A stretch of 42,465 nt of DNA, taken from positions 1-42,465 of IMG/VR virus record IMGVR_UViG_3300019765_000007, one strand, 5' to 3'. Positions within the stretch are counted from its first letter, which is position 1. Each line of letters opens with the position of its first letter. The position numbers were made by a program, and so were the translations under genes. This document shows, in pieces, positions 5,325 to 38,293 of the stretch. The notes under the pieces are model-generated. The model worked only from the letters and a program-made list of their open reading frames with translations, was not told the DNA's origin and searched no databases. This DNA comes from a virus (taxonomy: Duplodnaviria; Caudoviricetes).

Positions 5325-5568
5325 TATTATTCATCTTCTTTTTTGCTGATTTAACAGCATAAAATTCATTGACTCTTTTGACTATAATCGTTTCCCACAT
5401 GTACATTACATCTTCAAAAGAATAAACTGTTTTTAATTCGTGTCTTGTGCAGAGTCCTTCTGTTGTAATGACTGCGCTAATTGGGTCAACGTTTTTGTAA
5501 TTAATGCCGGTAAATCCTTCATCCATTCCTGCTGGAATTCTTGGACTTTCCCAGCTATGGAAAAACCC
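5317..5568 (-). CDS. Tail assembly chaperone, -1 frameshift extension (gpT-like)
   Basis: -1 frame open from slippery G GGT TTT (5568-5562) to stop at 5317; NVD..SAVITTEGL.T.HELKTVYS.ED...WE motif. Confidence 0.7.
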   Translation of the reverse strand, partial: GFFHSWESPRIPAGMDEGFTGINYKNVDPISAVITTEGLCTRHELKTVYSFEDVMYMWETIIVKRVNEFYAVKSAKKKMNNNV

Positions 5569-5876
5569 ATATTGTATTCCAGACTTGCCGCCTCCAATTT
5601 AACGGGCGTAAAAAAATCATTAGGCACATGATTATTTATTAATGCATCAGTTTCTAATGTTTGGAAATTATCACCAATTTTAACGGCAACGTATTTAAAA
5701 ATCTTTCTCGATAAAGCTTCATTCGCTTTATAATCACCGATTTTAGGCGCTGCTGTAGAAATAAATTGCGTGCATATTTCTCTGCCATCTGGCATATACG
5801 GATACTTACCAAGATAGTAAGTTCTTTCGATGCCATCTTTACCAGTTATTTTTACCTCTTTTTTCTCAATCAGCAT
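5433..5876 (-). CDS. Tail assembly chaperone (gpG-like)
   Basis: Between tube and tape measure genes; overlapped by a second frame. Confidence 0.8.
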   Translation of the reverse strand: MLIEKKEVKITGKDGIERTYYLGKYPYMPDGREICTQFISTAAPKIGDYKANEALSRKIFKYVAVKIGDNFQTLETDALINNHVPNDFFTPVKLEAASLEYNMGFSIAGKVQEFQQEWMKDLPALITKTLTQLAQSLQQKDSAQDTN

Positions 5877-6322
5877 CAGCTATCACCTTTATTTTCAAAA
5901 GCAAAAGTATATGTTTTTGACTTTTTACGCTTGCTACTGGCAATAGATGAAAATGGAATACCGTTAGTGATATTACCATTAATCAAGCGTGTCACCGTAC
6001 CATCTGGATAGACAACAGTGGCGTTAATAATATCAGCGGTGACAACTTTTCCGCGTCCAGGTCTATTATTTTCAAATAAAATGGCAAGGTTTCTATCATC
6101 ATCAGAATCTGGAATTAATGATAGCGTCATTGGTATTTTATTGGCAACAGACCAAACAATATGGTCACCATTTAAACCCATGGACCCATCGGCTATTTGC
6201 AAATCTGGGCCATCAAGTGGATCTGCATCATCAGCAAATTGTGTGAGTGTTATGCCAGCCGGAAAAGTATCGCTTGCTGTTAGCACGACTCGTAATCCAA
6301 AACCAGAAATTCCTACAGTCAT
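5876..6322 (-). CDS. Tail tube protein
   Basis: ISGFG...[16 protein letters not shown] motif; follows sheath gene. Confidence 0.85.
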
Positions 6323-6335
6323 TTTTTTAAACCTC

Positions 6336-7832
6336 TTAGATTAGAATCTGTGAACCAACAACGCGGCGTATGACATCATCTTTGCTATAAATTAATGTAT
6401 AGCGAGCAAAAAATTCTGTTACACCATTATTCACTTCACTTTCAACAAATGCATTTAACCAAAAACCTGCATTCCGTACCTGCTGGAATGCTAACGGATC
6501 ACCTGTTATCTGTGATATAAATGCAATTTGTGTTGAGTTTAATGGTTTATTTGTTGTAATTGTCCCATTAATTAATGCTTGATCTGTTACCGGCGTTATA
6601 GCTGATAAAATTTGCGCTCTGCCTGCTTCGTTGGCAGAAACTTCAGGAAGTGCAAGCAGTAAATTACCCAAGCTTGACCCTATTGCATCTTTTAACCATT
6701 GCTCATTAGCATAAACATTCATATTAACTGGGTCAGTGGATATCCCCTGTAAAAATCCACGCTGATAAAATGAAATATTTTGTCCTGCTGTTTGAGTGAC
6801 ACCATAATAATTAATTTGTAATGCATCAAGCATGTTAGCAACTTCCGATGTTGACACTTTTGGGGTCAAGTTAAACATATTGAACATATAATTCTGACTG
6901 CTTGCGCGTCTATCATAATCAGTTGCGGCAAGGATTGAAGCCGGTGACTGCTCGTCGTATTCATTGGGGAAATTTGTTAAATCAACTAACGTTAATCCGA
7001 CACCTCTAATATTTTGTAGAGGGTCTTGTGTTGTTGCTGCATCAGCTAATTCGACGGGTACATGATATTGAAATTGCACATTTCTTGTTGCATTCCAAGT
7101 AGCTGCTTCAACAATTTCATCAAGCGTTAATGCGCTCGCTGTGGTGAAAACAAATGATCCAAAATTATTAGACATTTCAGCGCTATCACTCAGCACATCA
7201 GTGACTGATTGCATGGTAATACCATTGCTAAATATAGCATTGACACCCCAACCAATACTGTTAACAATATCACCGCCGATAATTGAAACGGTATTATTAC
7301 CTGTCTCACCTCCTGTTAACTCAAATCTAGCATCAACAGCGTTATAATTCACAACAGCCATAGTAAATATATTGCCAAGACCTGTTCTAATCGCTGTTTG
7401 CAATATACTGGCAACATCGGCAAGACTTATCGCGGTAGAAAAATCGATATTTGCTAAGTTTAAAATGGCGCCACCCATTTCAATATCTAAAGTGCCATTT
7501 GTGATGGCCTGCAATGTTGCCAATGGTGCCGGCGTGTTACCAAATATTTGTGGAGCCGTATCAACATCAGCCCAACGTGAAAAAGAAATTCGTTGAGGTG
7601 ATGTCGCTAGCTTACTGACAAATCCAAAATAAAAAGATGACCTCATAAATTCTTCGGAAGAAGAACCAAAATAATCACTGACATCATCTGCTGATGTAAA
7701 TTCAATAATTGAATTAGTTGGTATGAGTTCATTTGTTGTAAAAATGCGCAGCAAAAATTCTCGTCGCGGTACTGCTTGACCACCGCCAACCGCTGAGGTA
7801 ATTAAAATATATCTATCAAATGGTATAGCCAT
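6336..7832 (-). CDS. Tail sheath protein (DUF3383-like)
   Basis: 498 aa; F.SADDV..YFG..SEE, NYYG.TQ.AG....FYQRG and Y.NEQWLKD motifs. Confidence 0.92.
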
Positions 7833-7834
7833 GA

Positions 7835-9655
7835 TTAAACCCTTTCAATTTGATGGTCAATACGTTGCACTTTTGGCTGTGTTGTTAATTTTTCTACTTT
7901 ATAAATAAAGGTTAGATCAAAAGATGATTCTTGCTCATTTCTTTCTCTTTCATCAATAAAATAACCATCTCTAACCGTGGTAATCTTTTCTATTCCTACA
8001 TTATTATTACACAATTCTCTTACTGTGCTTTGTAATGTAAAAATATCTGCCGCTGCTTGTGCCAAGTCTGATGCTGTTAATTGTTCAATATTGGCAGGAT
8101 TTCTAATACTCAAAGCCGTGAACTGATATTGAGACAATCTATAATTGATATTTCTTACGTCAAAATTATCATTGTTAGCATTATAAATTTGTTTTTCTCC
8201 TGTATATCCATATCGATGTGTGTTTAATTTATGGATATAAATGGCAGGCCCGCTAACAATGCCGGATTGCCTTGGCTGATAACTTTGCTTTACTGTAACG
8301 CCTTCGATATTACAATCAATCAACCCTTGCTTTAAAATAGCTATAATAACGCGTATTAGTGAATTATCATCTTTTACGATCGGGAAAATACTACCAATCG
8401 TTATTGATGATGCGAAGCCAACATCATCAAGATTCAAGTTTAATCCGACAACCAATTCATTATCGAAATTTACTTGTGATTGAAATCCAACATCATCTAA
8501 TTGTAGATTTAAACCAATAGTTACAGCATTTAAAAAATTAATTTCCGACTGAAAACCAACATCATCAAGATTTAAATTTAAATCGACTGTTAAAGGATCT
8601 AAAAAATTAATCTCAGATTGAAAACCAATGTCATCAGCAGCAAATTGTAAATCAACAGTCAATCCAACATCTTCACCGGCCTGAGCTATATAAAATGCGC
8701 CTGGGTCGTTTTGGTTATTAAATTCTGTTTCAATTAAATCACTATCAATAATCCCTGATCTTGCTTGCACTAATCCTACGTCTTCATTAGTAGCAAATCC
8801 AACAGTAGTTAATCCACCTGCGCCGCGATATCCAATTCTAAATGGCACGCCTGGCGCATCATCAAATAAAGCGCCAATGGCTGTTAATTCTAATTGGCCG
8901 TTGACATAAATATTCAGATCAGCATTAAATAAACAATCGATTCTGATCCATCCAGATGATTGAGTGTTGGGTATAGTTCTTGTTGTTGTATCTGATCCAA
9001 CAATTTGAAGGTCTAACCCTATTCCTGTATTTCTAAAAACTTGATAACTAATATCATTGTTATCACGTATGCCAAACAAAGTACCGTTTGCAGTAGTTTG
9101 AGACCAGCACGTGATTGAAATGCCTGTCCCTTTTCTTAGCGCGGTAACGTCTTGTAATCGATATCTTGGAGACCTTGTGGCAGGCCCGCCCCATGAATTT
9201 ATTACTTGCGTTCCTGCGCCTTCAGTATCTAATACAACAAGGTTGCCGCTTGAATCAAGCGGTCCATAGGTGTTTTGCACAAATCCACTACCGGCCCAAG
9301 TGTCATTGCGGCCAAATGGGTCTGCTGGTGCGGGCTGCACTTCGCCTGGATTCCCGCACCATATATAAATTGGTGGGGTGCCAAGGTTGTCAACATCATG
9401 TAAAACAAATATTTGGCCTGTTTCGGCGACTGTATCCCATGATGTGACTTGTATGGGTATTTGATTAGCGCCATTAATATCAGTGCTGGCGCGCAGATCA
9501 CCTCCGCCATTATCAGAATTGGAAAAAATATCACTGGCATTAACAGAAAATGATTGCTCTGTTAACAATCCAACATAGCCGATATGACTACCAACGATTA
9601 ACCCTTGCGTAGGGTCAACCCTGTAACGTCTTGACCAGCCGTCAGGGAACGCCAT
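7835..9655 (-). CDS. Tail terminator fused behind DUF2341-like and LamG-like domains and 4x23-aa repeats
   Basis: C-terminal ~180 aa (DNSLIRVII..LKQG...V.QSYQP.Q.G...F.DE.ER.EQ..SFD) in terminator position before the sheath gene; N-terminal GGDLR..D..G.NQIP and IYIW.GNP; YVNGQL LamG-like motif. Confidence 0.75.
   Translation of the reverse strand: MAFPDGWSRRYRVDPTQGLIVGSHIGYVGLLTEQSFSVNASDIFSNSDNGGGDLRASTDINGANQIPIQVTSWDTVAETGQIFVLHDVDNLGTPPIYIWCGNPGEVQPAPADPFGRNDTWAGSGFVQNTYGPLDSSGNLVVLDTEGAGTQVINSWGGPATRSPRYRLQDVTALRKGTGISITCWSQTTANGTLFGIRDNNDISYQVFRNTGIGLDLQIVGSDTTTRTIPNTQSSGWIRIDCLFNADLNIYVNGQLELTAIGALFDDAPGVPFRIGYRGAGGLTTVGFATNEDVGLVQARSGIIDSDLIETEFNNQNDPGAFYIAQAGEDVGLTVDLQFAADDIGFQSEINFLDPLTVDLNLNLDDVGFQSEINFLNAVTIGLNLQLDDVGFQSQVNFDNELVVGLNLNLDDVGFASSITIGSIFPIVKDDNSLIRVIIAILKQGLIDCNIEGVTVKQSYQPRQSGIVSGPAIYIHKLNTHRYGYTGEKQIYNANNDNFDVRNINYRLSQYQFTALSIRNPANIEQLTASDLAQAAADIFTLQSTVRELCNNNVGIEKITTVRDGYFIDERERNEQESSFDLTFIYKVEKLTTQPKVQRIDHQIERV
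8387..8662 (-). repeat. Four imperfect 69-bp (23-aa) coding repeats
   Basis: LTVDLQFAADDIGFQSEINFLDP / LTVDLNLNLDDVGFQSEINFLNA / VTIGLNLQLDDVGFQSQVNFDNE / LVVGLNLNLDDVGFASSITIGSI. Confidence 0.9.
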
Positions 9656-10039
9656 TTATAAATTACCGCCGGTAATCACTATGTTATTAAATACAGATGA
9701 TTGTCCAGCCGTGACGTTTGTTGAGCTTAATATCAGCTCAGATGCCAAACCATCAGCAACAAAATTGTCATCACCGTCTACCAATCGATACCAGGTAATA
9801 GTGCCTGTCATGGCAACGTTAGCGCCTGTAATTGCATTTGATATCATCATTTCGCTTGCTGGTGTTTGAAATGATGGATCAGAAAAGGTTCCTGTTACCA
9901 AAATGTTGGTAAGCGCGCCCCCCTTTGGCGGAGGCGTGCCATCAAGCAAATAAAATCTTCCAGGTGTCGCGGCTGCATCAACACTGTCAGCAATTTGCTG
10001 TAATCGTTGATGAATAAGGTTTGTATTAAAACTTGGCAT
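9656..10039 (-). CDS. Small beta-rich virion fibre/collar-associated protein
   Basis: G....L.G.PP..GGA.T..L, TGT.TWYR.VDG....V.DG and L.LSST.V.AGQ pattern of a widespread ~125-aa phage structural family. Confidence 0.65.
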   Translation of the reverse strand: MPSFNTNLIHQRLQQIADSVDAAATPGRFYLLDGTPPPKGGALTNILVTGTFSDPSFQTPASEMMISNAITGANVAMTGTITWYRLVDGDDNFVADGLASELILSSTNVTAGQSSVFNNIVITGGNL

Positions 10040-10041
10040 TG

Positions 10042-10410
10042 TTAATTCTCCACGACTTCAACCGCTAAAATTTGGTCCCATTTATCAAGCTCGAACCATT
10101 CATCTTCGCCGATAACTTGCCAAATTCTATTGTTGTATAAAATTCTGTCCCCTGCTGAATTTCTAGCAACGTCTTTTAAGTTTTCCTCTACCCAAATTTC
10201 GATAACTCGCTTATTAAAGTCAAGACCAAGCTCTTTTACTTGGGAGCGCTCGACGGGCTGGATGCTTCCTGATAATGGAATTGGACTAGAAAAATTTTGT
10301 ATATCTAATCCAAGCTCATTCGTTGTTATTGATAGCAACTGTTGATATTGAAAGGCTTGTCTATTGATAACAGTTAACGCTAAATTTAATAGATTGCCAC
10401 CGGGAAACAT
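10042..10410 (-). CDS. Head closure / neck protein
   Basis: PG.NLL..AL..I, GSIQPV.....LGLD and R..AGDR motifs; synteny. Confidence 0.75.
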   Translation of the reverse strand: MFPGGNLLNLALTVINRQAFQYQQLLSITTNELGLDIQNFSSPIPLSGSIQPVERSQVKELGLDFNKRVIEIWVEENLKDVARNSAGDRILYNNRIWQVIGEDEWFELDKWDQILAVEVVEN

Positions 10411-10979
10411 TACTCACCTTTTCCAACTTTATACGTCAAACTTGCGATAGCATAGCCTGAATCATCCAAAGGATTTTTATTCCCAAAACTTTGGTCACCA
10501 AGTTCCCCCCTTCCTGTTTTTCCCTCAGCAACCGCTTGCCTCACAGTGTTGACAAATCCTTTCCCTATTTTTGCCTGCGGGTTGTCGCGCCTGTATTTTC
10601 TTAATGCAATCGTTACAGGACTTAATGGTGGTGCCTTTAAATTAGCTATCGATTTTCTTAACTGCCCTGATATACGTAAACCCATTTTTTCCATGGCGGT
10701 TTCCGCTGTATCAGCGCCGTTTAGAATCGATTTTGACAACTGTTTTATTAGTGTTTTCCACTCGCTAATGTTATCTGTAATACCATTTCTTAACGCTGGC
10801 CTTGGCGGTATGCCAAGCTTAGTCGATCCAAATTCTTGTACAGCCATGACCCCAGCAACAGGTGTATTGTCATCGTATCGCGCAGACTCAAACCAACCAA
10901 CGGCTAAATAGAGCTTATTAAGCTCTTCCATCCGTTTTTTAATTTCTTGTCTGTTTGATACCTTCTTGACAATTTTTAT
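10410..10979 (-). CDS. Neck/tail completion protein (first ATG at 10931; frame open to ATA at 10979)
   Basis: VGWFESARYDD.TPVA.V..VQEFG....IPPRP and NPL.DSG motifs; start uncertain. Confidence 0.75.
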   Translation of the reverse strand: MKIVKKVSNRQEIKKRMEELNKLYLAVGWFESARYDDNTPVAGVMAVQEFGSTKLGIPPRPALRNGITDNISEWKTLIKQLSKSILNGADTAETAMEKMGLRISGQLRKSIANLKAPPLSPVTIALRKYRRDNPQAKIGKGFVNTVRQAVAEGKTGRGELGDQSFGNKNPLDDSGYAIASLTYKVGKGE

Positions 10980-11425
10980 ACGTTACCACCTGGGCCAAAT
11001 ACGCCAAATGCTTTTCTAAATCCTGATCTTTCAGGGCTTCCGCCAACATAAAGACCACCGGCAACACTAGCAGACAAAAGCGCCTGAAGCTGCAAACCAT
11101 ATGGGGTCAGGCTTAACCAATATGACCACTGGCTTGATCCGAAAGGTGGCGGCGTTAGGCTTACACTAACATTTTTTATCGATGCGCCAGTTACCAAGCC
11201 AACAGTATTACCGCTGGCGGCATTCTGACTAATAAAACACAAATGAGCTGTCATTAGATTTAATCCATATAATAGACAGTCATTTGACAAGCATGGATTA
11301 TCTTCATTAGCGATAAAACACGTTGCCGTGTCGAAATACGCTTGCAATGTCGCATCAGGGAACAATGTTTCATCGGCAAACGCCGGGAACGTTTGTCTAA
11401 ATAATGCAACATCAAAAATAACCAT
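10976..11425 (-). CDS. Head-tail adaptor (DUF4054-like)
   Basis: FD...FR..FPAF, L.LMTAHL and W...TPYG.Q motifs. Confidence 0.88.
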   Translation of the reverse strand: MVIFDVALFRQTFPAFADETLFPDATLQAYFDTATCFIANEDNPCLSNDCLLYGLNLMTAHLCFISQNAASGNTVGLVTGASIKNVSVSLTPPPFGSSQWSYWLSLTPYGLQLQALLSASVAGGLYVGGSPERSGFRKAFGVFGPGGNV

Positions 11426-11796
11426 TACGCTACTTTCTCCTTGGCAGGCATGGCTCCTTCAGTTAATGGGGCGCTTTTGTCTTTTTCCGTCATATCCTTT
11501 GCCACTTTTTCAACTTCGTGGCGCGGGTCTTTGTCCAAAACAGTGATAAAGCCACGATCCTTGTGCTTTTGAAAACTGGTGCAAGCTTCGAGCGTTTTTA
11601 ACTGATCGGCTGTTACTTCAGTTACCACACCTTTTGGGGTCACCAGTGCTTTATTAGCAATATTGGCGCCGCCATTAATTTTAACTTGGCCAACAACCAC
11701 ACGCGGGCCTTGATCGCGAACGCCTGGCTTGTTTTGAGTTTTGCGGTAAATCGTATAATTCTGTGCGTTTGATAATGTGCTAAGTACAAATGGCAT
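11425..11796 (-). CDS. Conserved head-region protein following the capsid gene
   Basis: I.GGANIA....TP.GVVT.V and F..H..RGFI; synteny. Confidence 0.65.
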   Translation of the reverse strand: MPFVLSTLSNAQNYTIYRKTQNKPGVRDQGPRVVVGQVKINGGANIANKALVTPKGVVTEVTADQLKTLEACTSFQKHKDRGFITVLDKDPRHEVEKVAKDMTEKDKSAPLTEGAMPAKEKVA

Positions 11797-11805
11797 GATT
11801 GACCC

Positions 11806-12960
11806 CTAGATACCAGTGAAACGAACAACAGCATAAGGACGTTTTAAGAATGCTCCGGCAGTAGCATTACTGTGTGCTTCTTCGTAGCTCTTAGTTTTCT
11901 GATCAACGCCTAATACTGTGAATTTAGTTGGCACTGCTTGAACCCAAGTACGCTGATCATCAGATCCAGATTCCTCGACGCTTTCAGCATACAGGTAAAA
12001 GACGTTTTCACCGCCATTTGCTCCATCAAGCTCTGGCGCGCTAATAACCGTCCAATTCGGATAATTTTTTTTCAGCCACTCATAAACTGAAACGCCAAAA
12101 TCTGTTGTTTGCTGAAGAAAATCAATAGCCGCTGTTGGAAGACCCAAAATGATTGGTGCTCGCTGAGAATCAACAATTTCTCGCGTGCTCGTGCGCAATA
12201 GACTGGCGGCTGTAAGCAAATCATTAACGATTTCTAAAAATGTTTTGCTTGACCATTCTGTACCGCCACCGCCACCCGTCGCTACGGTAACATAGCCGGA
12301 TAATGCAGGCTCGTTTAGAAATCCATAGGTACGATTTAAGCCGTTGTTGTAACCAAAAAATCCAACGGAATTACGCTGAATTTCTAACTCACGGGAAGAT
12401 GAAGAACGTTTTGCATCAGCCGTATTAACGCGTATGCGTGCCGCTCTTGCCTCTTCTAATTTACCAACACTTAAGCCGCTCTCAAAGCGAACAATTGTTC
12501 TACGCTCAAAATTCACATTATAAGCGGATTGCTGAGTGTTGCCGTAATCAGTGTAAGTCGAAACTTCGCCTGTTCGTTCTAAGATAGGCTGCACCACTTC
12601 TTCATCAGCCCAATCGCCTTGGGTGACAATACCTAAAAATTCGTCAATGCGACGAACAGCGGTAACGTCTTCGACAAACCCAGTTAGCCATGATTGCAAA
12701 TACTGTACGGGTGTCGTACTAGAAGGCGTGGTGATGGTTGGCGTTAGTGCCGCGTCTTGACCAATTTGCTCAGCAAGATAATTGCGGAAAGCCATCATTT
12801 TATTAATTGATTGGCCATCTAAGGCAATACCATATTTCCCCAAAAGATTGGGATTTTTGCTAACAGCATCGAGCGCGTTTTGTGCAAGCCGCACTTTACG
12901 CACCTGAGAGGGCAAAATACTTGATTTTTCTAAATGCGTCATTGGTAAGCTAAAAGACAT
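11806..12960 (-). CDS. Major capsid protein (DUF2184-like)
   Basis: 384 aa; PVQ.LQ.W, G.W.DE, N.VGF.G, YGFLN.P and GA.LKRP.AV.R..GI motifs. Confidence 0.93.
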   Translation of the reverse strand: MSFSLPMTHLEKSSILPSQVRKVRLAQNALDAVSKNPNLLGKYGIALDGQSINKMMAFRNYLAEQIGQDAALTPTITTPSSTTPVQYLQSWLTGFVEDVTAVRRIDEFLGIVTQGDWADEEVVQPILERTGEVSTYTDYGNTQQSAYNVNFERRTIVRFESGLSVGKLEEARAARIRVNTADAKRSSSSRELEIQRNSVGFFGYNNGLNRTYGFLNEPALSGYVTVATGGGGGTEWSSKTFLEIVNDLLTAASLLRTSTREIVDSQRAPIILGLPTAAIDFLQQTTDFGVSVYEWLKKNYPNWTVISAPELDGANGGENVFYLYAESVEESGSDDQRTWVQAVPTKFTVLGVDQKTKSYEEAHSNATAGAFLKRPYAVVRFTGI

Positions 12961-12970
12961 GTTTGACCCC

Positions 12971-13465
12971 TTATGTTAGCTCAACGATTGCCAAACCTGG
13001 CGCTGGAATATTTCGGCGTACAATTTTAGCATTAGGGATTAATGTATGCCCTGCTAATGTAGTTGATGGATCTGCGGCGATACTGCCATCAGTATCACTA
13101 TAAAAAACATTTTCACCAATGGCCGCGTCAGTTGTTAGCAAAACAATAATTCCTGATGTCAGCGTTACCAGCTCTACGTTGGTTTCATTGGGTAACACGA
13201 TTGTAGGTGCAAGCGTGCCACCTGCTGCCGTACCTTGTAACGCGTAGGTGCGGGAATTTGCGAGAATACCGGCAAACGCCCCTGGCGTGTCTGCTGTTAC
13301 GGCTAGATCATCACCGGCAACGTGACTAAAAGCACGACCAATGACATTATTGGCAGGGTCAGAGCTGCGCAAAATGCCAGGCTGACCCCGGCGAGGGCCA
13401 TCAATAAAAATGTCACCAATGACACCCGTGGCACTAGTGAACTCTACAGTTGATTGAAATGGCAT
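12971..13465 (-). CDS. Capsid cement/decoration protein
   Basis: MPFQSTV...G..GD...DGP.R and FAGIL.N motifs; between scaffold and capsid genes. Confidence 0.8.
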   Translation of the reverse strand: MPFQSTVEFTSATGVIGDIFIDGPRRGQPGILRSSDPANNVIGRAFSHVAGDDLAVTADTPGAFAGILANSRTYALQGTAAGGTLAPTIVLPNETNVELVTLTSGIIVLLTTDAAIGENVFYSDTDGSIAADPSTTLAGHTLIPNAKIVRRNIPAPGLAIVELT

Positions 13466-13470
13466 AGTTT

Positions 13471-14682
13471 TTACTCCTGTCCGGTGAATGCTTTATCTAA
13501 TTCGTCAACACCTGACTGATGATCAAGACCTTGACTTTGGCTGTATGATACTGGCCGCGATGTTGGCATGACATGCAGAGCCGCTTTTATCGCCGATAAC
13601 TCAGAACCCGCATCACATGGGATTTCTAGCTTGTCGGTGCCATACTTGGCAACCTCGGCTAGGGTCATGCTTGAATGATCGAAAGTACCCACGTGTTGAC
13701 TAATTTTATTTGCTAAGCTGTCACGCTGGCTAATTTCATTCATCACGCTTTTAGCGTCCATTCCCGCTTTTAGCTTTGTGATTTCGTCTTCTAAGCTTTT
13801 GATTTTTTGGGTCATTTTAGCGTCCATGGCTTTTTCTTCTGGTTCTTTATCCATAGAATATTCGTCCATGTTTTCTTCAGATTCGCTATTGCCGGCACCC
13901 ATATTTGATACCATTTCCATCATTTTCTGCATCATAGGAACAACTTGCTCCATAACTTTCATCATTTCTGCCATGGTCATGCTTTCCATATCCATGGACT
14001 TTTCTTCCATGTCTTGACCTTTTTCCATGTCTTGACCTTTTTCCATGTCCTTTGAATCTTCTTCTTTCATCTCCATGTCTTGACCTTTTGACTGAACAGC
14101 TTTATCTTTAACAGCCATTACCACACCCTCTTTATTGATCTTTATAGTTAATGCATCCATAGCAATAGCGTTATCGCCTACTGTTATTTCCATACGACTT
14201 TCAGGCACGCTTGCAAGATGATTACCACGTAAACGCCTTTGCACCACATTATAACGCTGTCCGTTAAAAGTTCCAGTCTCAAATTCATACACGCACGCAT
14301 AACCTAGCGACAATTCATCAATGTCAGAATAATCTATGGCATTACCTAAAGAATCTGAAAATATTTTGATGTTGCCTTTTAGTTGGTCGGTATCCGCATC
14401 ATAATAAAATTGCTCTCCAGTGGTGCCATGGATGCCTTTTTGCTCTGGCGCAACACCATGCTTTTTACCAATCATCGTATGCTCGATAACCCATGGCTTG
14501 AGCTTAAATGACTCAATCGTTTCTGGATCGCTTAATTCGCTTGGCGGCCTTAAAACATAATAGACTTCATCAGGGTTAGGCGCCCCTATCTCTGAGCCTA
14601 AATATTCATAAACACCGGCCTTGCTTAACACTTGGTCCCTGAATTCAACGAAACCATCATTATCAACATAGGGGACAGCCAT
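13471..14682 (-). CDS. Prohead protease/scaffold (DUF2213-like)
   Basis: SK.GVY.Y.G.EI, LRP..EL, ELS.GY.C and NHLA.V motifs; acidic Met-rich scaffold tail. Confidence 0.9.
   Translation of the reverse strand: MAVPYVDNDGFVEFRDQVLSKAGVYEYLGSEIGAPNPDEVYYVLRPPSELSDPETIESFKLKPWVIEHTMIGKKHGVAPEQKGIHGTTGEQFYYDADTDQLKGNIKIFSDSLGNAIDYSDIDELSLGYACVYEFETGTFNGQRYNVVQRRLRGNHLASVPESRMEITVGDNAIAMDALTIKINKEGVVMAVKDKAVQSKGQDMEMKEEDSKDMEKGQDMEKGQDMEEKSMDMESMTMAEMMKVMEQVVPMMQKMMEMVSNMGAGNSESEENMDEYSMDKEPEEKAMDAKMTQKIKSLEDEITKLKAGMDAKSVMNEISQRDSLANKISQHVGTFDHSSMTLAEVAKYGTDKLEIPCDAGSELSAIKAALHVMPTSRPVSYSQSQGLDHQSGVDELDKAFTGQE
14005..14049. repeat. 18-bp tandem repeat x2.5 (KGQDME)
   Basis: TTCCATGTCTTGACCTTT at 14005 and 14023, partial at 14041; related copy near 14072. 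Confidence 0.9.
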
Positions 14683-15552
14683 TTAATTTTCTCCAAATTC
14701 CAAAACAGGTAACATAGTGCAACGGCAATTTATAGCATCACCAGGCAAGCCGCGCTCGCCGGTATTTTTATCAATAATTGGCGGATCATCTAGGCTAAAA
14801 ATCTTACCGTTTAGCTCATCCCTGTGATATTTTCTTGGAGTTTGACCGCCACCAGTATGTACCCATTCAAAACGCTTTACACCAGCCTTTTCCATCCGTG
14901 CCGCGTTGAAATGATTGTATGCCTTTCTTGTTTGATCAAGTGCCAAGTTTTTGGCCTTGTTTAATATCTGCTTATTCCTTTTATCCAAATTATTATCGAG
15001 CTTTTTAATAATTCCAGATAATCCACCCTCATCCCTGCTTGTAATTGATCGGTATACCATGCCTTTGACTTGATTAAAATATTGGCTTGGTATGCTTTTT
15101 ATCAACTCTACATTTTCAGAGACAATGGCTTTTAATTCTTCTTCTAAATCACCTGTTATAAAATCAGTCTTAATGCTTAGTCCGCCTGATAACTTTTCTA
15201 AACTGCTGTGTAATGATGACTTACTGTCTTTATCGACTTGATTTACCATTTGATTGGCAAATGGCTTACTTATTTGTGAAAATAATGAATCATATTTTTC
15301 TTCAAGTTGATTCATCAATATTCTAGATTGGCTTGATATACTCGCATCTTGTGCAAAGTATTTTCGAGCATCATCACTGACAAATAATTTTTTTACCTGA
15401 CGATTAACATCATCAACCATCATCCTTGTTATTCTATCCAGTTTTTTAGCGTAACGGTTTTGTATAGATACACCTATTTTTAGCGCGCTACCTTTGAATT
15501 TTCCTTTTCTGTTTTTTGCCCATTGTTGACGTTTGTTAGTTAACAATCTCAT
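14683..15552 (-). CDS. Minor head protein (Mu gpF / SPP1 gp7-like)
   Basis: ENV.LIKSIP, A.DQT.K, W.H.GG...PR..H and PG..INCRC motifs; start moved to MRLLTNK. Confidence 0.9.
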   Translation of the reverse strand: MRLLTNKRQQWAKNRKGKFKGSALKIGVSIQNRYAKKLDRITRMMVDDVNRQVKKLFVSDDARKYFAQDASISSQSRILMNQLEEKYDSLFSQISKPFANQMVNQVDKDSKSSLHSSLEKLSGGLSIKTDFITGDLEEELKAIVSENVELIKSIPSQYFNQVKGMVYRSITSRDEGGLSGIIKKLDNNLDKRNKQILNKAKNLALDQTRKAYNHFNAARMEKAGVKRFEWVHTGGGQTPRKYHRDELNGKIFSLDDPPIIDKNTGERGLPGDAINCRCTMLPVLEFGEN

Positions 15553-17071
15553 TCTTAACTTCTTCCACATCGACATTTAAAGGGTCAAGGTCTGGCTCTA
15601 TGCCTTCTGGCCTTTCGACTTCTTCTATATGACTATAACCAGACCCTTGGTCATTCCTTAATTTTGATCGAACGTCATAGGCGTCAACCGCTCCAAGATT
15701 GCCATAATTAACAGCCGTGGCACTTTCTTTTTGATTGATGTCTGCCTGCTCAGATGGCGATAATTCATAAAGCGGGCACCACTCATGATAAATTTCTATA
15801 TTTCCTATAGCTGTCTTAATGAATGATCTTTCTACGCACAAATGATGCCTATCAAGCACTGATGATAATTCATTTCCTCTAATTGAGCTTAATTTTTGAT
15901 TGTATGTTTTTATTTCGTGCTCGCCGGTTGATTGAAAACCTTTTGGGCTTGTTTGTATTAGCCTTGTCGCTGGCATTTCTGCTATCGCTGCAACTAGCTG
16001 GTATTGCGTCATAATTACGCTATCAAGGTCAGTTAGGTTAGTATCCAATTGTGTTAAATTTTCTTCTTTTCCTATCGCGTAAATACCATAATTATTTCTG
16101 AAGTTAATGATCTGTTTTAAGTTCTTCATAAATTGGCTAGGATTTGTCACTGCTTTTTCTAAATCCATTTGCAACGCATTTAAGCGCTTTGTCATTGTCA
16201 GCTCTGGTCCTTCGTTTGCCGTTCTTTCGGCGGAATAAACACGTTCATAAATTCGCTGTGTCAGTGGCACGCCTGCGTATTGATAGGCCGGTTTTAATAT
16301 GTCGGGTAATTCGGGGCCACGTAATATAACAAAATGGCTTTTATGTATTCGCTTTCCGCTAACTATCCAAAATTCTGGATCATAAAAATTTTTACTTTCT
16401 GGACGCTCTACTGTGTCCCCTGTTAATTCAGGCACTACCCAATAGGGGTCAATCTGTGACATTCCCTTGTAACTACCTGGCGTTATGCCGTCAGGATTAA
16501 ACGGTTTTTCATAATATTCAGGATCGCTAGAATCGACTAAGAATAATATGTGCCTAATGCCGAAAATATTCTTCATGGCATCAGCTTCAATCAGATTTTT
16601 TTTGACGTGATATCGTCTATCAATCCTTTCTATTTTTTTAATCAGACTTGGTTTAACTTCATCATCTGAATCAATGATAATGTCATAACCTGTTCTAACC
16701 GCGTCCTCACCTTTTGTATAACACGCTTTTAAAACAAGCCAATGCTGAGATATTAACGCGCACGCTTGAAAACCGATGAATGTTTGGCTGATGTACCAAG
16801 ACAATAAATTATCATTGATTCGAGTATCGCCGAGTGTAAAAGCCTGCTTTGTTGAATCTATTGATACAGAGTCCATTGCAGAGTTGACAAACTTTTTTGG
16901 CTGATCGGCTAACCAACTATTAGCAATTTGCAGAATATTTTCTGAAAAAGAATTATCATCTTTATCTCTGTTTTTATAAAACTCTAAAATTTTAGATAGA
17001 TTATCTTTTTCTTTTTTATCTTCTATTTTTTCCTTTTTTTTAGGAAAGAATTTTTTGATAAAATTAAGCAT
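15536..17071 (-). CDS. Portal protein (DUF1073-like)
   Basis: FIG.QACA..SQHWL, FNPDGI..GSYKG..QIDPYW and T.L....PKGF.STGE motifs. Confidence 0.92.
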   Translation of the reverse strand: MLNFIKKFFPKKKEKIEDKKEKDNLSKILEFYKNRDKDDNSFSENILQIANSWLADQPKKFVNSAMDSVSIDSTKQAFTLGDTRINDNLLSWYISQTFIGFQACALISQHWLVLKACYTKGEDAVRTGYDIIIDSDDEVKPSLIKKIERIDRRYHVKKNLIEADAMKNIFGIRHILFLVDSSDPEYYEKPFNPDGITPGSYKGMSQIDPYWVVPELTGDTVERPESKNFYDPEFWIVSGKRIHKSHFVILRGPELPDILKPAYQYAGVPLTQRIYERVYSAERTANEGPELTMTKRLNALQMDLEKAVTNPSQFMKNLKQIINFRNNYGIYAIGKEENLTQLDTNLTDLDSVIMTQYQLVAAIAEMPATRLIQTSPKGFQSTGEHEIKTYNQKLSSIRGNELSSVLDRHHLCVERSFIKTAIGNIEIYHEWCPLYELSPSEQADINQKESATAVNYGNLGAVDAYDVRSKLRNDQGSGYSHIEEVERPEGIEPDLDPLNVDVEEVKNEIVN

Positions 17072-18452
17072 CCCAATCAACATCGAAAAAGCCTACATTG
17101 TTCTCATGCGGTGAATTAGCCATGATATAAGCATCAGCATAGTTTGTTGATTCTATATCGCGCTTCTTTAAATCTTTTTTTGATTCTACTTTCATTTTGC
17201 CATTGTTGTCTGTGTCCTTTTTGACAATAGTTAGCTCATAGATTAATTGTTGCAAATCATCTAAATCAGAGCTTATAGAAAATATTTCATCTTCTTCAAA
17301 CTTTTCATTCTTTGTTACAGCGTTATAAGTGTTTCTAAATCTATCCGCTGCCAATGTCCATGATTGGTCTTTCAAGCTATGGAAAAAGTCCTTGTTTTTT
17401 ATCTTTACGTCTTCAGTATCAATATAGTATTTATCTGGATTTGCTACACCAGCGTTAGCAATAAATTTGCTATAAGATACTTTTCCAGGTTCACCTTTTG
17501 ATCTACGCTCTTCGTTCATCTCATTGAATTTAGAGCCACATAGGGCGCCAACGCCTATTGAATCATAATCTACTTCTGCGCCGAGTGCCAATGCTTTACT
17601 ATAAACGCGCTTACAAGACTTCATTAATTCATCTTCTTTGGCTTTCCACTGATTACCGCTAACAGCATGAAAACCGTGAACGTATATTTCAGCGCACTTA
17701 TCCTTGCCACTATCAGCAACGTCAAATCCTATTCGCTTCTTGCCGCTTGGCTCTATACCTAGCTTTATGTTCGCATCAATGGCAGCCATGACCCAAGATC
17801 GTTTAATGATAACGTTATCATCGTCAAGACGTGGCACACCAAGATAGATATGCTCGTATTCTTCATAATCTGCTTCTTTTAACCTGTTGATTGTCCTCAG
17901 CATTTTATCGCTGATGAATGGATTCTCATCATAGTTAATATGTCGAACAATGACCCCATTTTCAGGGTCATGCTTGAAATTTGTTTCAACGAAATCAGTT
18001 ACTAGGTTTGGATTGTAAAGCAGCCAAATTTCTGATCCTTCTTTTCTGATCGTCGGCTCGATGACTTTCCACTGCTCCTTAGTTAGCCCGTCCCCCTCTT
18101 CAATCCATGCAATGTCGCAGCCTTCAAACCCTTTAATCTCATCAATATTCCTTTGGATTCCATAAAAGTAAAACTCTGACCCCGTCCTCTTATGCCGCAA
18201 CACGTTATTTAAAATCGTGTATTCATTTTCGCACTTGTTGCGCCTGATTGTATCAACGAGAACGGTATAGACTGATTGTGATATTTTGTTTTGGAATTGG
18301 CGCATGCACAGGAACTTTACTTTATAGTGTCGCGATAAATGTATCGCTATTCCTCCTGCATCCCATGTTTTAGAAGATGATCGACCGCCTTTTAAAACTT
18401 TGACATCGGCTTTTGTTTTCCAGAATGTTTTTAAATTAGGGTTTAACTTCAA
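17064..18452 (-). CDS. terL: Terminase large subunit (PBSX-like)
   Basis: GGRSSSKT Walker A, WIEE Walker B, PTIRK.GSEIW, G.DVAD.G.D nuclease and S.N.ADA motifs. Confidence 0.96.
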   Translation of the reverse strand: MKLNPNLKTFWKTKADVKVLKGGRSSSKTWDAGGIAIHLSRHYKVKFLCMRQFQNKISQSVYTVLVDTIRRNKCENEYTILNNVLRHKRTGSEFYFYGIQRNIDEIKGFEGCDIAWIEEGDGLTKEQWKVIEPTIRKEGSEIWLLYNPNLVTDFVETNFKHDPENGVIVRHINYDENPFISDKMLRTINRLKEADYEEYEHIYLGVPRLDDDNVIIKRSWVMAAIDANIKLGIEPSGKKRIGFDVADSGKDKCAEIYVHGFHAVSGNQWKAKEDELMKSCKRVYSKALALGAEVDYDSIGVGALCGSKFNEMNEERRSKGEPGKVSYSKFIANAGVANPDKYYIDTEDVKIKNKDFFHSLKDQSWTLAADRFRNTYNAVTKNEKFEEDEIFSISSDLDDLQQLIYELTIVKKDTDNNGKMKVESKKDLKKRDIESTNYADAYIMANSPHENNVGFFDVDWDA

Positions 18453-18455: not shown

Positions 18456-18977
18456 TCACCCTTCATCATAAAAATCATTAAAGTCTGGAGCTTCAGTAAA
18501 ATCGACGGTAGACTCTGTTTTTTCAGCTAATCCTAGATCTCTTGATATCATCGTCTTATCAAGCAGCCCTACAGCCGCCGCGGTAAACTTTTGTTCATAG
18601 ATTACTAACTCTATCCATTCTACCACCCTGACGTAATCCGCGTTTTCTGGGCTTTCGTCGGGGTCAAGCTTCTTGTATTTTGAAAAGGTCTTTTCACACA
18701 TCCCAGCAAACACATAAAAACCGGCTTTTGTGAATGCCCTTGTTTTATTCGTTAACACTCTTTCCAATTTATGGTTTACGGTTTTGACTAATTCTTCTTG
18801 AAGTGGGTTGTCTTCGCAGTATTGGAAATACTCTTGAGCCTTTCTAAAAAGATCATCAGGCGTGAGCTTTTTTTTTCTGCCATTGGTTTTTCTTAATCGC
18901 CAAAGCGTATTGTTAGGTGCGAATAGACCATTTTCATCACGTTCATCTCTTACTTCATCGTCTTTTGTATCGGTCAC
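18456..18977 (-). CDS. terS: Terminase small subunit (P22 gp3-like)
   Basis: AP.N..W..R...GR, EYF..CE.NPL and IY.QKF..AA.GLL....I.RDLGL motifs. Confidence 0.9.
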   Translation of the reverse strand: MTDTKDDEVRDERDENGLFAPNNTLWRLRKTNGRKKKLTPDDLFRKAQEYFQYCEDNPLQEELVKTVNHKLERVLTNKTRAFTKAGFYVFAGMCEKTFSKYKKLDPDESPENADYVRVVEWIELVIYEQKFTAAAVGLLDKTMISRDLGLAEKTESTVDFTEAPDFNDFYDEG

Positions 18978-18989
18978 TGTTTACCATCC

Positions 18990-19017
18990 AAAAAAAAGCC
19001 GGATGGCAGTCCGGCTT
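18990..19017 (-). terminator. Intrinsic terminator immediately upstream of terS
   Basis: Minus strand AAGCCGGA-CTGCCA-TCCGGC followed by T8. Confidence 0.85.
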
Positions 19018-19084
19018 GGCGCAATTAATTATCGAAGAATATCAAAGGAAACAAAAATGAACATAGAACAGCTATTAACAATAT
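18990..19084 (-). ncRNA. Candidate ~95-nt late-leader small RNA with an anti-SD/anti-AUG segment
   Basis: Bounded by a near-consensus promoter and an intrinsic terminator; contains AUGUUCAUUUUUGUUUCCUUU; start site inferred. Confidence 0.55.
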
Positions 19085-19090
19085 GTCTTG

Positions 19091-19119
19091 AATATAACGC
19101 CAGGTTTTTAAATTGTCAA
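19091..19119 (-). promoter_or_regulatory. Sigma70-type promoter (late, pR'-like)
   Basis: TTGACA (19119-19114), 17 bp spacer, TATATT (19096-19091). Confidence 0.85.
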
Positions 19120-19274
19120 GGAATGACAACAACTAGGCCGTAGCCTGTTCCGTCTGAATTTGATGGCTGCCAGCTTGTTCCGGCTAACGTTAGTTGTGCC
19201 ACGGCTGTGGTTTTGTCTAGTGCTTCAATAGTGCCAATGCTGTTATTTGAGGTATCGAGAAATTTAAAAATCAT
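19116..19274 (-). CDS. Hypothetical protein, 52 aa (MIFKFLDT...)
   Basis: ATGA overlap with upstream stop; the longer ORF-track start overlaps the upstream gene. Confidence 0.6.
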   Translation of the reverse strand: MIFKFLDTSNNSIGTIEALDKTTAVAQLTLAGTSWQPSNSDGTGYGLVVVIP

Positions 19275-19708
19275 GACTGATAAATCCATGTTGTGTTGTG
19301 GATGATGATTTGCGGTACCAGACCAGCGGTTTTTCTCATCTGAATTTCGATAGTGACATCTGTGAGATTTGGCAGTGGTGTTAGTGTTCTTTGCCACTCG
19401 ATACCGTAAATTCCGTTTACTGTTTGCGAATCTTCGCTGATAAAATAAATCTCGCCCACATGAGAGGGGTCAGGCCCAGCATAAACACCTCTAACTTGAA
19501 CCGTGGTCAAGCCTGCTAATCCTGATTTCGTATAACAAGTTTTTACAAAGTTAAACGAATTTTTGACGCCATCGTGGCTAAACACTCCAAGCTCAAGCCA
19601 ATCATTACCAATTACTTCTTTTGAGCGAACGCTTGTATGGTCTGTGTTGGGTGGCTGATAGCCATATCCCATGCATGGCACGCCCATATTAAATACCCCA
19701 CTTGTCAA
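19271..19708 (-). CDS. Hypothetical beta-rich protein
   Basis: Tightly packed in operon. Confidence 0.65.
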   Translation of the reverse strand: MTSGVFNMGVPCMGYGYQPPNTDHTSVRSKEVIGNDWLELGVFSHDGVKNSFNFVKTCYTKSGLAGLTTVQVRGVYAGPDPSHVGEIYFISEDSQTVNGIYGIEWQRTLTPLPNLTDVTIEIQMRKTAGLVPQIIIHNTTWIYQS

Positions 19709-22218: not shown

Positions 22219-22293
22219 TGGTGCGCGTGAAAGGAATCGAACCTGAATCATCTCGATTATGAGTCGAGCGCTTTACCTTTAAGCTACACGCGC
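22219..22293 (-). tRNA. tRNA with CAU anticodon (probably Ile2, alternatively elongator Met)
   Basis: GCGCGTG/CACGCGC acceptor stem, GCTT/AAGC D stem, CTCGA-CTCATAA-TCGAG anticodon arm, TTCGATT T loop, encoded ACCA. Confidence 0.9.
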
Positions 22294-26440: not shown

Positions 26441-26674
26441 CTAGCCGTAGCCGTAGCCGTTGCCGTTGCCGGTGCCGTTGCCGTCGCCGGTGCCGTTGCC
26501 GGTGCCGTTGCCGTAGCCGTTGCCGTTGCCGTTGCCGTTGCCGTCGCCGGTGCCGTTGCCGTTGCCGGTGCCGTTGCCGGTGCCGTTGCCGTAGCCGGTG
26601 CCGTTGCCGTAGCCGTAGCCGTAGCCGTTGCCGTAGCCGTCGCCGTATCTTAATTGTTTATTCAGCTTCGACAT
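26441..26674 (-). CDS. Gly-X dipeptide repeat protein (X = N/T/Y/D), 77 aa
   Basis: GAGGGG SD; all Gly codons are GGC, forming a 6-bp-period array. Confidence 0.7.
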   Translation of the reverse strand: MSKLNKQLRYGDGYGNGYGYGYGNGTGYGNGTGNGTGNGNGTGDGNGNGNGNGYGNGTGNGTGDGNGTGNGNGYGYG

Positions 26675-27096: not shown

Positions 27097-27130
27097 ATTA
27101 TTTGACATTATTGCGTCATTGTCAAATACT
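27097..27130. promoter_or_regulatory. Overlapping divergent sigma70 promoters built on an inverted repeat
   Basis: + strand TTGACA-17-AATACT; - strand TTGACA-17-AATAAT; TATTTGACA-N12-TGTCAAATA. Confidence 0.8.
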
Positions 27131-28125: not shown

Positions 28126-28149
28126 TAATAAAAAATTGGAGAAACAAAA

Positions 28150-28743
28150 ATGCAATGCACTAAAGAGCAATTTTTAAAAGATGTTGAAAACCATTCAATG
28201 GAAATATTAAAAGACGATGGACTTTATCGGCATTTAAAATTCACGAATGGCGGTTCTCAAGTTTACAGATTTGATTTAATTACATGGCCTGGGCACTTAT
28301 GTATTTGCCAAGACATGGGCACTTATGTTTTTTCTAAACAGCCAGATATGTTTGATTTTTTCTATGATGGCGAAATTGCCATCAAACCGTCTTATTGGTC
28401 TGAGAAAGTGCAATCTCAGTGCAAGCAATCTCATATAGAACAATATAGCAAAGAGCAATTAATCGAAAACGTTTGGTATTGGTTTGAGAATTATTTTCAA
28501 TTTAAAGACGATGAAGAGAAGGCGGCAGTCAAAGAAGAAATCAACAAAGAAGTAATAAAATCTTTATCCGGATGTGAAATCCGAGATTATGACGTGGTTG
28601 TTGGCTACGAAAGCAGCTTTGGACATGAGTTTTTAGATTTTTTTGAAACTAGCAATCAAGAATACTCGTACCACTATTTGTGGTGCTGCTGGGCTATTGT
28701 TTGGGGTATAGGTCAATACAATAAATCAAAAGCCAACAACTAG
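28150..28743 (+). CDS. Conserved phage hypothetical protein
   Basis: DDGLYRHL.F...Y.FDL.TWPG.L...DMG.YVF and Y..HYLWCC.AI.WGI..Y. Confidence 0.75.
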   Translation: MQCTKEQFLKDVENHSMEILKDDGLYRHLKFTNGGSQVYRFDLITWPGHLCICQDMGTYVFSKQPDMFDFFYDGEIAIKPSYWSEKVQSQCKQSHIEQYSKEQLIENVWYWFENYFQFKDDEEKAAVKEEINKEVIKSLSGCEIRDYDVVVGYESSFGHEFLDFFETSNQEYSYHYLWCCWAIVWGIGQYNKSKANN

Positions 28744-28996: not shown

Positions 28997-29046
28997 ATCT
29001 GCTTTATATTGACAAATTAGATATATAATAAAAAGGAACACAAAAA

Positions 29047-29490
29047 ATGAATATCGACAACCTTAAATTATTGAAGCAAGGGCTTGAAGATAATTTCAAT
29101 AGATTTGAAAAACATTTCACAATGGATTTTCATAGAAGCAAAGAATCTGAGAATGGTTATGGCTTGGATGCAGTCGAATTTAAAAGCAAGACCGACAGTG
29201 GTTCTCACGGTTGTTTGCTTGGCTTGGCCCCGCTGCTTGACATTAAAGAGCTTGAGCCGGTAGAGAGCGATTATGGATACGAGAGTTTAGATTTTAATTC
29301 GTATTGCGGTAGGGTTTTTGGTATTGAGATAATATCGGACCCTATTTGGGATTATTTATTTGGTGGGTATTGGGTGGATTACGACAACACGCTGCAAGGC
29401 GCAATCAATCGACTAGAAAAAGTGATTTCCGGAGAAGTCGCAGAAGGAGATGCAAAAACTCTTTTGCCTTGGATTGATCGCGAACGATGA
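29047..29490 (+). CDS. Hypothetical protein, paralogue A
   Basis: Aligns end to end with 30535..30963. Confidence 0.8.
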   Translation: MNIDNLKLLKQGLEDNFNRFEKHFTMDFHRSKESENGYGLDAVEFKSKTDSGSHGCLLGLAPLLDIKELEPVESDYGYESLDFNSYCGRVFGIEIISDPIWDYLFGGYWVDYDNTLQGAINRLEKVISGEVAEGDAKTLLPWIDRER

Positions 29491-30518: not shown

Positions 30519-30534
30519 AAAAGGAAAGTAAAAA

Positions 30535-30963
30535 ATGAACATTAAAAACCTAGAGATACTTAAGCAAGGGCTTGAAGATAATTTTGATAGAATTCAGTAT
30601 CGTTTTAATATGGAGCAATATAGATCTGTTCATACTGTTTCAGTCTTTTTTCCTAAAAGTTTCAAAAGCAAAACAGACTGTGGTTCTCACGGCTGTTTGC
30701 TTGGCCATGCTCCATTACTTGGCATCGAAGAGCTTGAGGCTTTAGCGGGTGATTTTTTACATGGTTCTCTAGATTTCCAAATATATTGCGAAAGGGTGTT
30801 TGGTATTTATGATCATAATTTTATTTGGAAATATTTATTTGCGTCTGAGTGGGCTGGATACGATAACACCCTACAGGGATCGATCAATCGCCTAGATAAA
30901 GTAATTTCCGGAAAAGTGACAGAAGAAAACGCGGAAGAGTTTTTGCCTTGGCGTAGAGGGTAA
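30535..30963 (+). CDS. Hypothetical protein, paralogue B (CGSHGCLLGH motif)
   Basis: Aligns end to end with 29047..29490. Confidence 0.8.
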   Translation: MNIKNLEILKQGLEDNFDRIQYRFNMEQYRSVHTVSVFFPKSFKSKTDCGSHGCLLGHAPLLGIEELEALAGDFLHGSLDFQIYCERVFGIYDHNFIWKYLFASEWAGYDNTLQGSINRLDKVISGKVTEENAEEFLPWRRG

Positions 30964-32721: not shown

Positions 32722-33174
32722 TTAAGATCCATTTCTCATACCTTCGGCGTAGCAATACGCCTCATAGTAGGTTTTGAATTTATAATCATTGGATACCAAT
32801 GATCTTGCATTTTTTATTTCTATATCTTCTATTTTCTTTTCTGCTTTAATCTTGTTTTTATTTCTTGCGCTGGGATTTTCAACAATTCTAGTATTTATTA
32901 TTGTGTTTGGCCCCTTTTCATCTATCAAACGAATTTGTTTTTTTTCTTTTATCGCGTCATAATTAAACAGCATTTTGTATATAACATGCAATGTTCTATA
33001 GCGAACACCGTTTAACTGAAGCTCTTTGTTATTTATTTTTTTATTATTAAGCTTGTTGGTTTTTTTTATTTTTGAATTAACAAAATGGTGTTGTGGCCTT
33101 TTCTTCCAAAATAAATCGCCGCTTTCACTGTCATAGCGAAAGCATTCGTTTAGATATTCTTGTTCAGGTAACAT
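32722..33174 (-). CDS. Degenerate HNH-endonuclease-like protein
   Basis: L.ECF.YD.ESG.LFWK.RP N-terminus, but no intact DH..G...DN...NL motif. Confidence 0.55.
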   Translation of the reverse strand: MLPEQEYLNECFRYDSESGDLFWKKRPQHHFVNSKIKKTNKLNNKKINNKELQLNGVRYRTLHVIYKMLFNYDAIKEKKQIRLIDEKGPNTIINTRIVENPSARNKNKIKAEKKIEDIEIKNARSLVSNDYKFKTYYEAYCYAEGMRNGS

Positions 33175-33949: not shown

Positions 33950-34025
33950 TTTTTTATCCTTTTTATAAAGTAAAGTCCGCTAATTACAGCGGCATAATTT
34001 TTTAGTGTATTTCTAGCAGTATCGA

Positions 34026-38128: not shown

Positions 38129-38293
38129 CTTCCATCTCCTTGTTTGTTTGTGTAGTGCTATTACACTATATTTTTATTACCGCGTGAAATAACATTTTCC
38201 TATTAAAAGCCAGGTTTGATTAGATAGTTTCAATTAGCTTTGAAAATCTCGCGACATTATTATTTGCTCATCAACTAACAGCGAGGACGGAAA

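Follow-up and report, generated by a model that had tools for sequence, protein, structure and literature searches.

A predicted phage small RNA ahead of the terminase small-subunit gene carries a reverse copy of a start repeat shared by early genes

A short transcription unit located directly upstream of the terminase small-subunit gene (terS) in a phage genome contains a reverse copy of the region from the Shine-Dalgarno (SD) sequence to the AUG that is shared by several early genes. The promoter, the terminator, the look-alike early starts and the reverse copy are all present in the sequence. We place the probability a little above even that the unit encodes a trans-acting antisense small RNA (sRNA) against this start repeat and doubles as the late leader, and such an RNA would likely turn down the early genes that share the mirrored ribosome-landing sequence. 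The feature is real, it would be a variation on known phage antisense RNAs, and it seems to belong to a recurrent class for which we found no description. Early-gene shut-off is poorly known in phages that use the host polymerase without Q-type or repressor switches, and the phage sRNAs covered by the available text of a review mostly act on one phage operon or on host genes (PMC12197685).

A promoter-terminator unit directly upstream of terS

The window, that is, the whole stretch of DNA analysed here, is the entire IMG/VR record IMGVR_UViG_3300019765_000007, which is 42,465 nt long with direct terminal repeats and a G+C content of 38%. Its sequence is present in freshwater and sediment metagenomes, one of which (X1) may be its source, and a contig from a second study (X2) is identical to the window across positions 18609-19280. 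The phage is of the myovirus type, with structural genes that run leftward from terS (18977), and profile searches identified further genes for Erf/RecE, NinB/NinG, a Cro-like helix-turn-helix (HTH) protein, a MarR protein and CsrA. No integrase and no repressor of CI length was found among the 57 proteins scanned. The features of the unit, together with csrA, are as follows.

19091-19119, minus strand: sigma70-type promoter, -35 TTGACA (19119-19114), 17-nt spacer, -10 TATATT (19096-19091), 11/12 matches
18990-19084, minus strand: predicted RNA of ~95 nt, its start placed by the spacing from the -10
19044-19064, minus strand: anti-(SD-spacer-AUG) tract, unpaired with a mean probability of 0.69
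18990-19017, minus strand: intrinsic terminator, 8-bp stem (19017-18996), 6-nt loop, U8
18456-18977, minus strand: terS, the first late gene (phrog_606, PF16677), with a GTG start 12 nt past the U tract
19057-19143, plus strand: 28-codon open reading frame (ORF) that the mirrored start opens, unlikely to be a gene
37946-38128, minus strand: near-canonical CsrA of the phage, whose gene heads the leftward early operon (NF002469, E=1e-33; PF02599)

The original prediction had described a minus-strand TTGACA-17-TATATT promoter and a T8 terminator about 95 nt downstream of it, and both are found at these places, the promoter with 11/12 matches and the terminator 12 nt ahead of the GTG of terS. The stop codon of the gene upstream (19116-19289) shares bases with the -35. 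Two sites with 11/12 matches occur in the scanned stretch from 17500 to 41000 (1-17500 and 41000-42465 lie outside the scan), and this promoter is one of them. The body of the predicted RNA is rich in U (34 of 67 nt) and is weakly folded apart from the terminator (z -0.67). Since the U tract and terS are 12 nt apart, which leaves no room for a promoter, the late genes would need read-through of the terminator, so that the unit would double as a late leader. The terminator loop and 3' arm are also complementary to the SD and start of terS (18974-19010, minus strand), and the alternative hairpin, at -12.3 kcal/mol, forms only when the 5' arm of the terminator is blocked and otherwise has a probability of 0.004; this pairing is a possible extra brake on terS.

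Several other elements of the genome deserve mention. A 12-nt word in the promoter spacer (19096-19107, minus strand) is found again ahead of csrA, in the intergenic region (38206-38217, minus strand), with four matches at one mismatch or fewer against 0.48 expected, for a pattern derived from those two sites themselves; it is possibly a regulator site. An inverted repeat over the -35 is perfect, yet a search allowing two mismatches gave 3 matches against 3.0 expected, and this candidate was rejected. Divergent promoters with 11/12 and 10/12 matches overlap fully at 27097-27130 and form a palindrome, which is adjoined by the Cro-like HTH gene alone, no CI or integrase having been found. The minus strand also contains a 77-aa ORF of Gly/Asn/Tyr/Thr repeats at 26441-26674, whose repeat matches many contigs in other runs, a gene for a PagP-like outer-membrane protein at 33174-33584, a MarR-family regulator at 33581-33949 and a tRNA-Met(CAT) at 22219-22293. 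Rfam covariance models run on the window matched only tRNA, with no match to c4 or another RNA family.

Searches for close relatives returned only distant phages for terS (31-42%), setting aside the contig of the window itself and a short fragment, for the major capsid protein (45-53%), besides one short fragment, and for the gene upstream of the promoter; the relatives of terL reached at most 62%. No diverged relative able to show co-variation between the tract and its targets came out of the terS, capsid and upstream-gene searches, and three capsid relatives that were scanned contain no such promoter-terminator unit before the terminase. A relative contig (X7) spans 18882-19070 with seven differences from the window.

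The mirrored start and its predicted targets

The start repeat consists of AAAGGA, an A-rich spacer and ATG, and it is present at 7 of the 44 non-late and at none of the 26 late genes (p=0.03). Of the nine occurrences of AAAGGA-N5-10-ATG in the genome, seven mark gene starts, and the leader, read in reverse, accounts for one of the remaining two. The seven starts align with each other at scores of 14-18, and five of them sit in the leftward early operon headed by csrA. When scored with a start matrix from all 70 starts, the opposite strand of the tract ranks second of ~84,900 non-start positions. It is still second with a matrix from 41 non-late starts that leaves out the three targets named in the original prediction, and it is first with a matrix from the 44 non-late starts and 51st with one from the late starts. 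Its score is reached by 7 of 2000 dinucleotide shuffles. By these measures, the tract resembles a start more closely than chance would allow; as the starts of one genome resemble each other, a functionless duplicated start would also be favoured. In other IMG/VR records, exact matches to the 21-mer are followed by an ORF that runs from its ATG in 9/9 cases, and the 21-mer is therefore a generic start-region word.

The predicted targets of the RNA, with net pairing energies corrected for accessibility, are listed below.

30520-30542, plus strand: start region of the gene 30535-30963 for an uncharacterised 142-aa phage protein, top predicted target, net -15.1 kcal/mol
29032-29053, plus strand: start region of the paralogue gene 29047-29490, predicted target, net -12.6
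37947-37966, minus strand: start region of 37777-37953, the gene that follows csrA, predicted target that is absent from the original prediction, net -12.4
22200: predicted site at this start, net -11.9
28141-28152, plus strand: start of 28150-28743, weaker predicted target, net -10.2
33947-33964, minus strand: start of the MarR-family gene 33581-33949, one of the AAAGGA starts, with an alignment score of 15 and a net energy of only about -7

The original prediction had rested on the matches of the tract (19064-19044) to 30520-30542, 28141-28152 and 29032-29053, and all three are located as it described. As evidence, however, they are weaker than they look. The products of 29047 and 30535 are 57% identical, and being paralogues they are not independent targets; the start of 28150 ranks 13th of 70 by raw energy, and fifth with accessibility; and matches of 12 nt are common, as 322 of the 620 68-nt windows have an exact 12-mer that is also found at another place and 133 have two or more. 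The two paralogues belong to an unnamed, uncharacterised phage protein family with 259 relatives and a conserved DCG-x-x-GC motif; its Atlas clusters are mostly viral, and it has no Pfam match.

The expectation that the pairing would be stronger than in shuffled controls was not borne out for raw duplex energies against the 70 starts, where 92 of 196 shuffles were as good for the best target, 40 for the top three and 27 for the top five; for the mean over the 70 starts, only 2 of 196 were as good. With the opening energies of both RNAs taken into account, the shuffles that did as well were 10 of 216 for the best target, 4 each for the top three and the top five, 3 for the top ten and 7 for the mean, and none of the 216 matched the bias towards non-late over late starts. 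Under unconstrained folding, 30535 ranked 8th and 29047 11th. An alignment score of at least 15 is reached by 3 of 62 own starts and by none of 648 GC-matched foreign starts (Fisher 6e-4), for which 80 csrA-bearing loci served solely as the pool, whereas an energy-based comparison of own and foreign starts for this phage was not significant (p 0.13 and 0.26). In a search across the mRNAs, start windows represent 70 of 1972 windows yet 12 of the best 50 sites, and two sites in coding regions pair at least as well as the best start (-20.3 and -20.1 versus -19.7). These tests were run one after another, the positive ones after the negative raw-energy test, and the p-values should be read accordingly. 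A repressor of several non-late phage mRNAs, as originally proposed, is thus the best-supported reading with respect to the start matrix, accessibility, alignment and recurrence, while the raw energies speak against it.

Recurrence of the unit and alternative readings

Because no close relatives were found, we scanned IMG/VR for the pattern of promoter, CAT-N7-TCCT and T6. The scan gave 110 loci, 93 of them distinct, and 31 of these contain a true hairpin terminator, compared with 78 loci, 50 distinct, and 6 with a hairpin, three of which are near-identical, in a scan with a scrambled pattern (31/93 versus 6/50; p=0.004 before dereplication). The 31 hairpin units represent 21 families beyond this phage. 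An opposite-strand ORF of 1-55 codons is present in 29 of the 31, and two are true cis cases, located over an integrase and a transposition protein. Within families, antisense ORFs of different lengths (5-30 aa; 4-16 aa) accompany a tract that is kept. In a scan without the CAT requirement, of which 120 of the ~930 loci in 100 families were considered, CAT was found 5-10 nt ahead of TCCT in 9/25 hairpin families versus 7/75 families without a hairpin (p=0.004); the overlapping word TCA was raised too (7/25 hairpin families).

Many of the recurrent units adjoin the end of a gene on the same strand. Genes that follow such a unit include terS in G031 and those for a head protease in G008, a holin in G021 and a primase-helicase in the G002 family. 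In G031, the unit is placed 50 nt ahead of terS, and a second promoter-like site, identified by eye, follows the terminator, suggesting that the RNA gene stands alone there; this unit matches the starts of the phage's own exonuclease and ATPase genes. An energy test covered all 31 contigs; in the alignment test, on 19 of these contigs from 16 families, own-genome matches are strong in 3 of the 16 families (G003/G018, in two of three members, G015 and G031) and borderline in G024, with modest count tests for G015 (p 0.08) and G031 (p 0.03). Twelve of the 16 families show no own-genome advantage, several of these being fragments of 10-25% completeness. Among bacterial genomes, a stricter pattern gave 16 hairpin units in 119 distinct matches (120 of ~170 loci), and the design is thus not confined to phages. 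A comparison of 40 look-alike loci with Rfam returned two tRNAs and no other family. A candidate sRNA with promoter, anti-SD tract and terminator is conserved in marine gammaproteobacterial metagenome-assembled genomes (MAGs; L528, L530, L538, L557, L564, L586, L617) from Arenicellales, Acidiferrobacteraceae and others, and several of these adjoin a FabD-like gene, as judged by eye. AT-rich T7-like podoviruses (L157, L171, L180, L195, L238, L255) contain the unit between the genes for the ssDNA-binding protein and the primase-helicase, and no own-genome target was found in these fragments.

We consider it possible, with a probability clearly below even, that the unit in this phage belongs to a widespread and undescribed class of "anti-start" phage sRNA genes, each with a strong sigma70 promoter, an exposed anti-SD-AUG tract and a terminator, that are located at module boundaries, often before packaging, head or lysis genes, and that would shut off a set of early genes via a shared start repeat. 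If true, this would represent an RNA-based early-to-late switch in phages without Q or a repressor, and a testable answer to the role of start-associated repeats. No description of a promoter/anti-SD-AUG/terminator class was found in the titles or abstract openings of the papers listed by the literature searches; the 38 phage sRNAs without function in Table S1 of PMC12197685 could include members. The class is easily found by pattern, with 21 further families in a single strict scan.

The location directly ahead of terS, with no space for another promoter, could also mean that the unit is solely an attenuator of the late genes, with a promoter, a pause and a terminator that would be passed by leakage or with the help of an antiterminator. 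The short RNA would then be incidental, and the mirrored start would be left over, without effect, from an old inverted duplication or would have arisen by chance in U-rich sequence. A -10-like hexamer (TAnnnT-type) that we noted by eye at about +2 to +7, which is common in AT-rich DNA, agrees with this explanation, as do the raw energies, which are no better than those of shuffles, and three distant loci (L005, L010, L012) in which a promoter-like site followed by a terminator-like hairpin is seen by eye upstream of terS-bearing regions. It is nevertheless rather unlikely, since no Q protein of three families scores above the cut-off, the start mimicry exceeds chance (matrix rank 2; 7/2000 shuffles), and the unit recurs with CAT enrichment and in some cases with a separate downstream promoter. 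Alternatively, the 28-codon plus-strand ORF may be a real or recently dead small gene and the RNA its cis-antisense, as in P22 Sar and type I antitoxins. The geometry is suitable, with the antisense promoter inside the ORF and an RNA that spans both SD and AUG, the mirrored start ranks with the best of this genome, and 2 of the 31 look-alike units are truly cis. However, the ORF has no PHROG or Pfam family, and no plus-strand promoter above 8/12 is found within 600 nt of its start. A relative contig over 19002-19227 (depth 2.8, which may reflect error) has three differences, two of which are listed: a missense change and a stop loss in the ORF, the latter silent in the overlapping minus-strand gene. 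None of the listed differences falls inside the predicted RNA, and the changes point weakly away from a protein-coding ORF. That the ORF is a pseudogene of the 29047/30535 family, as a likeness of the N-termini by eye had suggested, was rejected, because its peptide is absent among the 30 HMM matches listed and ranks 19 of 1582 ATG peptides. We therefore regard a cis-antisense role as improbable.

The fact that the mean pairing over the 70 starts beats shuffles (2/196), that own-genome targets are absent in 12 of the 16 other families, and that StxS and PreS act on host targets in the available accounts would suit a broad anti-SD decoy directed mainly against host mRNAs, for host shut-off or the silencing of defence, with the fit to phage starts as a secondary effect. 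We give this explanation little credence, as the fit is better to the phage's own starts than to 648 starts from foreign phages and the bias towards non-late starts is strong. The phage CsrA offers yet another explanation, in which the AAAGGA repeat is a binding signature for this protein, the RNA competes with or assists it, and CsrA might gate late expression by acting at the SD of terS and at the GGA of the terminator arm. CsrA binds A(N)GGA sites, which AAAGGA fits, the near-canonical gene shares its operon with five of the seven AAAGGA starts, and the SD of terS has its complement in the loop and arm of the terminator. But the only GGA of the RNA is buried in the stem and GGA belongs to any SD, and we consider this explanation very improbable. 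A sponge of the CsrB/RsmZ type was likewise rejected, since such RNAs carry many GGA motifs in loops and this one has a single GGA, located in the terminator stem. Relatives of the phage CsrA are encoded on 336 viral-contig stretches, and the protein aligns almost over its full length with the PDB chains 1y00 and 1vpz, which we take to be gammaproteobacterial; the host group is likely gammaproteobacterial as well.

Proposed mechanism and comparison with known systems

If the unit encodes a trans-acting sRNA, the strong promoter and the terminator before terS would lead to the production and accumulation of the predicted ~95-nt RNA. A U tail is a handle for Hfq, and the U8 tail may contribute to the stability of the RNA in this manner. 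The unpaired U/C-rich middle would likely pair in trans over the SD-to-AUG region that a number of early and middle genes share and prevent it from being translated, with repression of 30535, 29047 and the gene after csrA and weaker effects on the other AAAGGA genes. This would damp early functions during infection, while a fraction of the transcripts would read through the terminator into the late operon. Expression of the RNA, pairing in vivo, timing and read-through are what we infer here. An RNA of this size that recognises a start sequence common to several genes would provide a compact off-switch for the group.

The original prediction had drawn an analogy to the lambdoid pR'-tR' leader, which loses force as no Q gene was found. 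The Q families PF06530 and PF03589 had no matches, and PF06323 gave 14.1 bits, below the cut-off of 25, for a protein encoded 17 kb away, for which a single-sequence AlphaFold model has a pLDDT of 33; searches via Pfam, NCBIfam, whole-genome profiles and the Atlas returned nothing usable. As in the Q-dependent late cassette, in the available text on it (10.1101/651190), a promoter, a short transcribed stretch and a terminator are located directly before the late genes. However, this phage has no Q gene adjacent to the unit or elsewhere above the cut-off, so the unit is not part of the Q cassette family as defined there. It may work like a Q cassette with another factor, and its pause element is suggestive only.

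The start-associated sequences (SAS) of the cluster K mycobacteriophages are, in the available text, repeats located where non-structural genes begin, and a single copy lies in reverse orientation (PMC3203893). The phage studied here similarly has a start repeat that is restricted to non-late genes and one reverse copy, although its repeat is looser and A-rich. In the right arm of Adephagia, we identified 16 forward and one reverse SAS. The reverse copy is placed in a hairpin loop (z -5.2) within a non-coding gap that is matched in 182 phage records and lies near the right end, where late expression begins according to the text available (PMC11373665). The gap contains a conserved two-hairpin non-coding element (JF704105, ~58600-58740; L630:30600-30740), with the reverse SAS in the second loop in Adephagia, Validus and LilPharaoh, an altered form in DarthP, Phrank and Shandong1, and none in Marshawn. 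A parallel in co-variation was rejected, as DarthP, Phrank and Marshawn have a diverged loop or none at all although their SAS is unchanged, which counts against required pairing in cluster K and leaves the parallel unproven. The unit suggests an angle on the long-open role of the SAS repeats, though the co-variation check there was negative.

The phage antisense RNAs provide further comparisons, as far as the available texts describe them. P22 Sar and other cis-antisense RNAs also have their own promoter and terminator and are the exact reverse of an SD-AUG region (PMC12197685), and the difference is that the opposite-strand ORF does not look gene-like here. The c4 antisense RNA of P1 and P7 is likewise phage-encoded, trans-acting and short (~77 nt), and it pairs around the ribosome-binding site (PMC12197685), but it acts on a single operon (ant) via the loops of a folded RNA, whereas the tract described here lacks structure and is the mirror image of a repeat found at many starts. 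The Stx-phage RNA StxS, which stems from the pR'-tR' leader, is a 74-nt RNase E product that is bound by Hfq, controlled by Q and made in lysogens, and its targets are one phage mRNA in the late operon and host rpoS (PMC7547250). Shared with StxS are a short RNA from a late promoter, an intrinsic terminator and pairing, here predicted, at the ribosome-binding site of a phage mRNA (PMC7547250); the unit differs in that no Q or integrase is detectable and in its several predicted early targets with one start repeat. On the basis of these descriptions, StxS is the nearest known kin by origin, and c4 the nearest by action.
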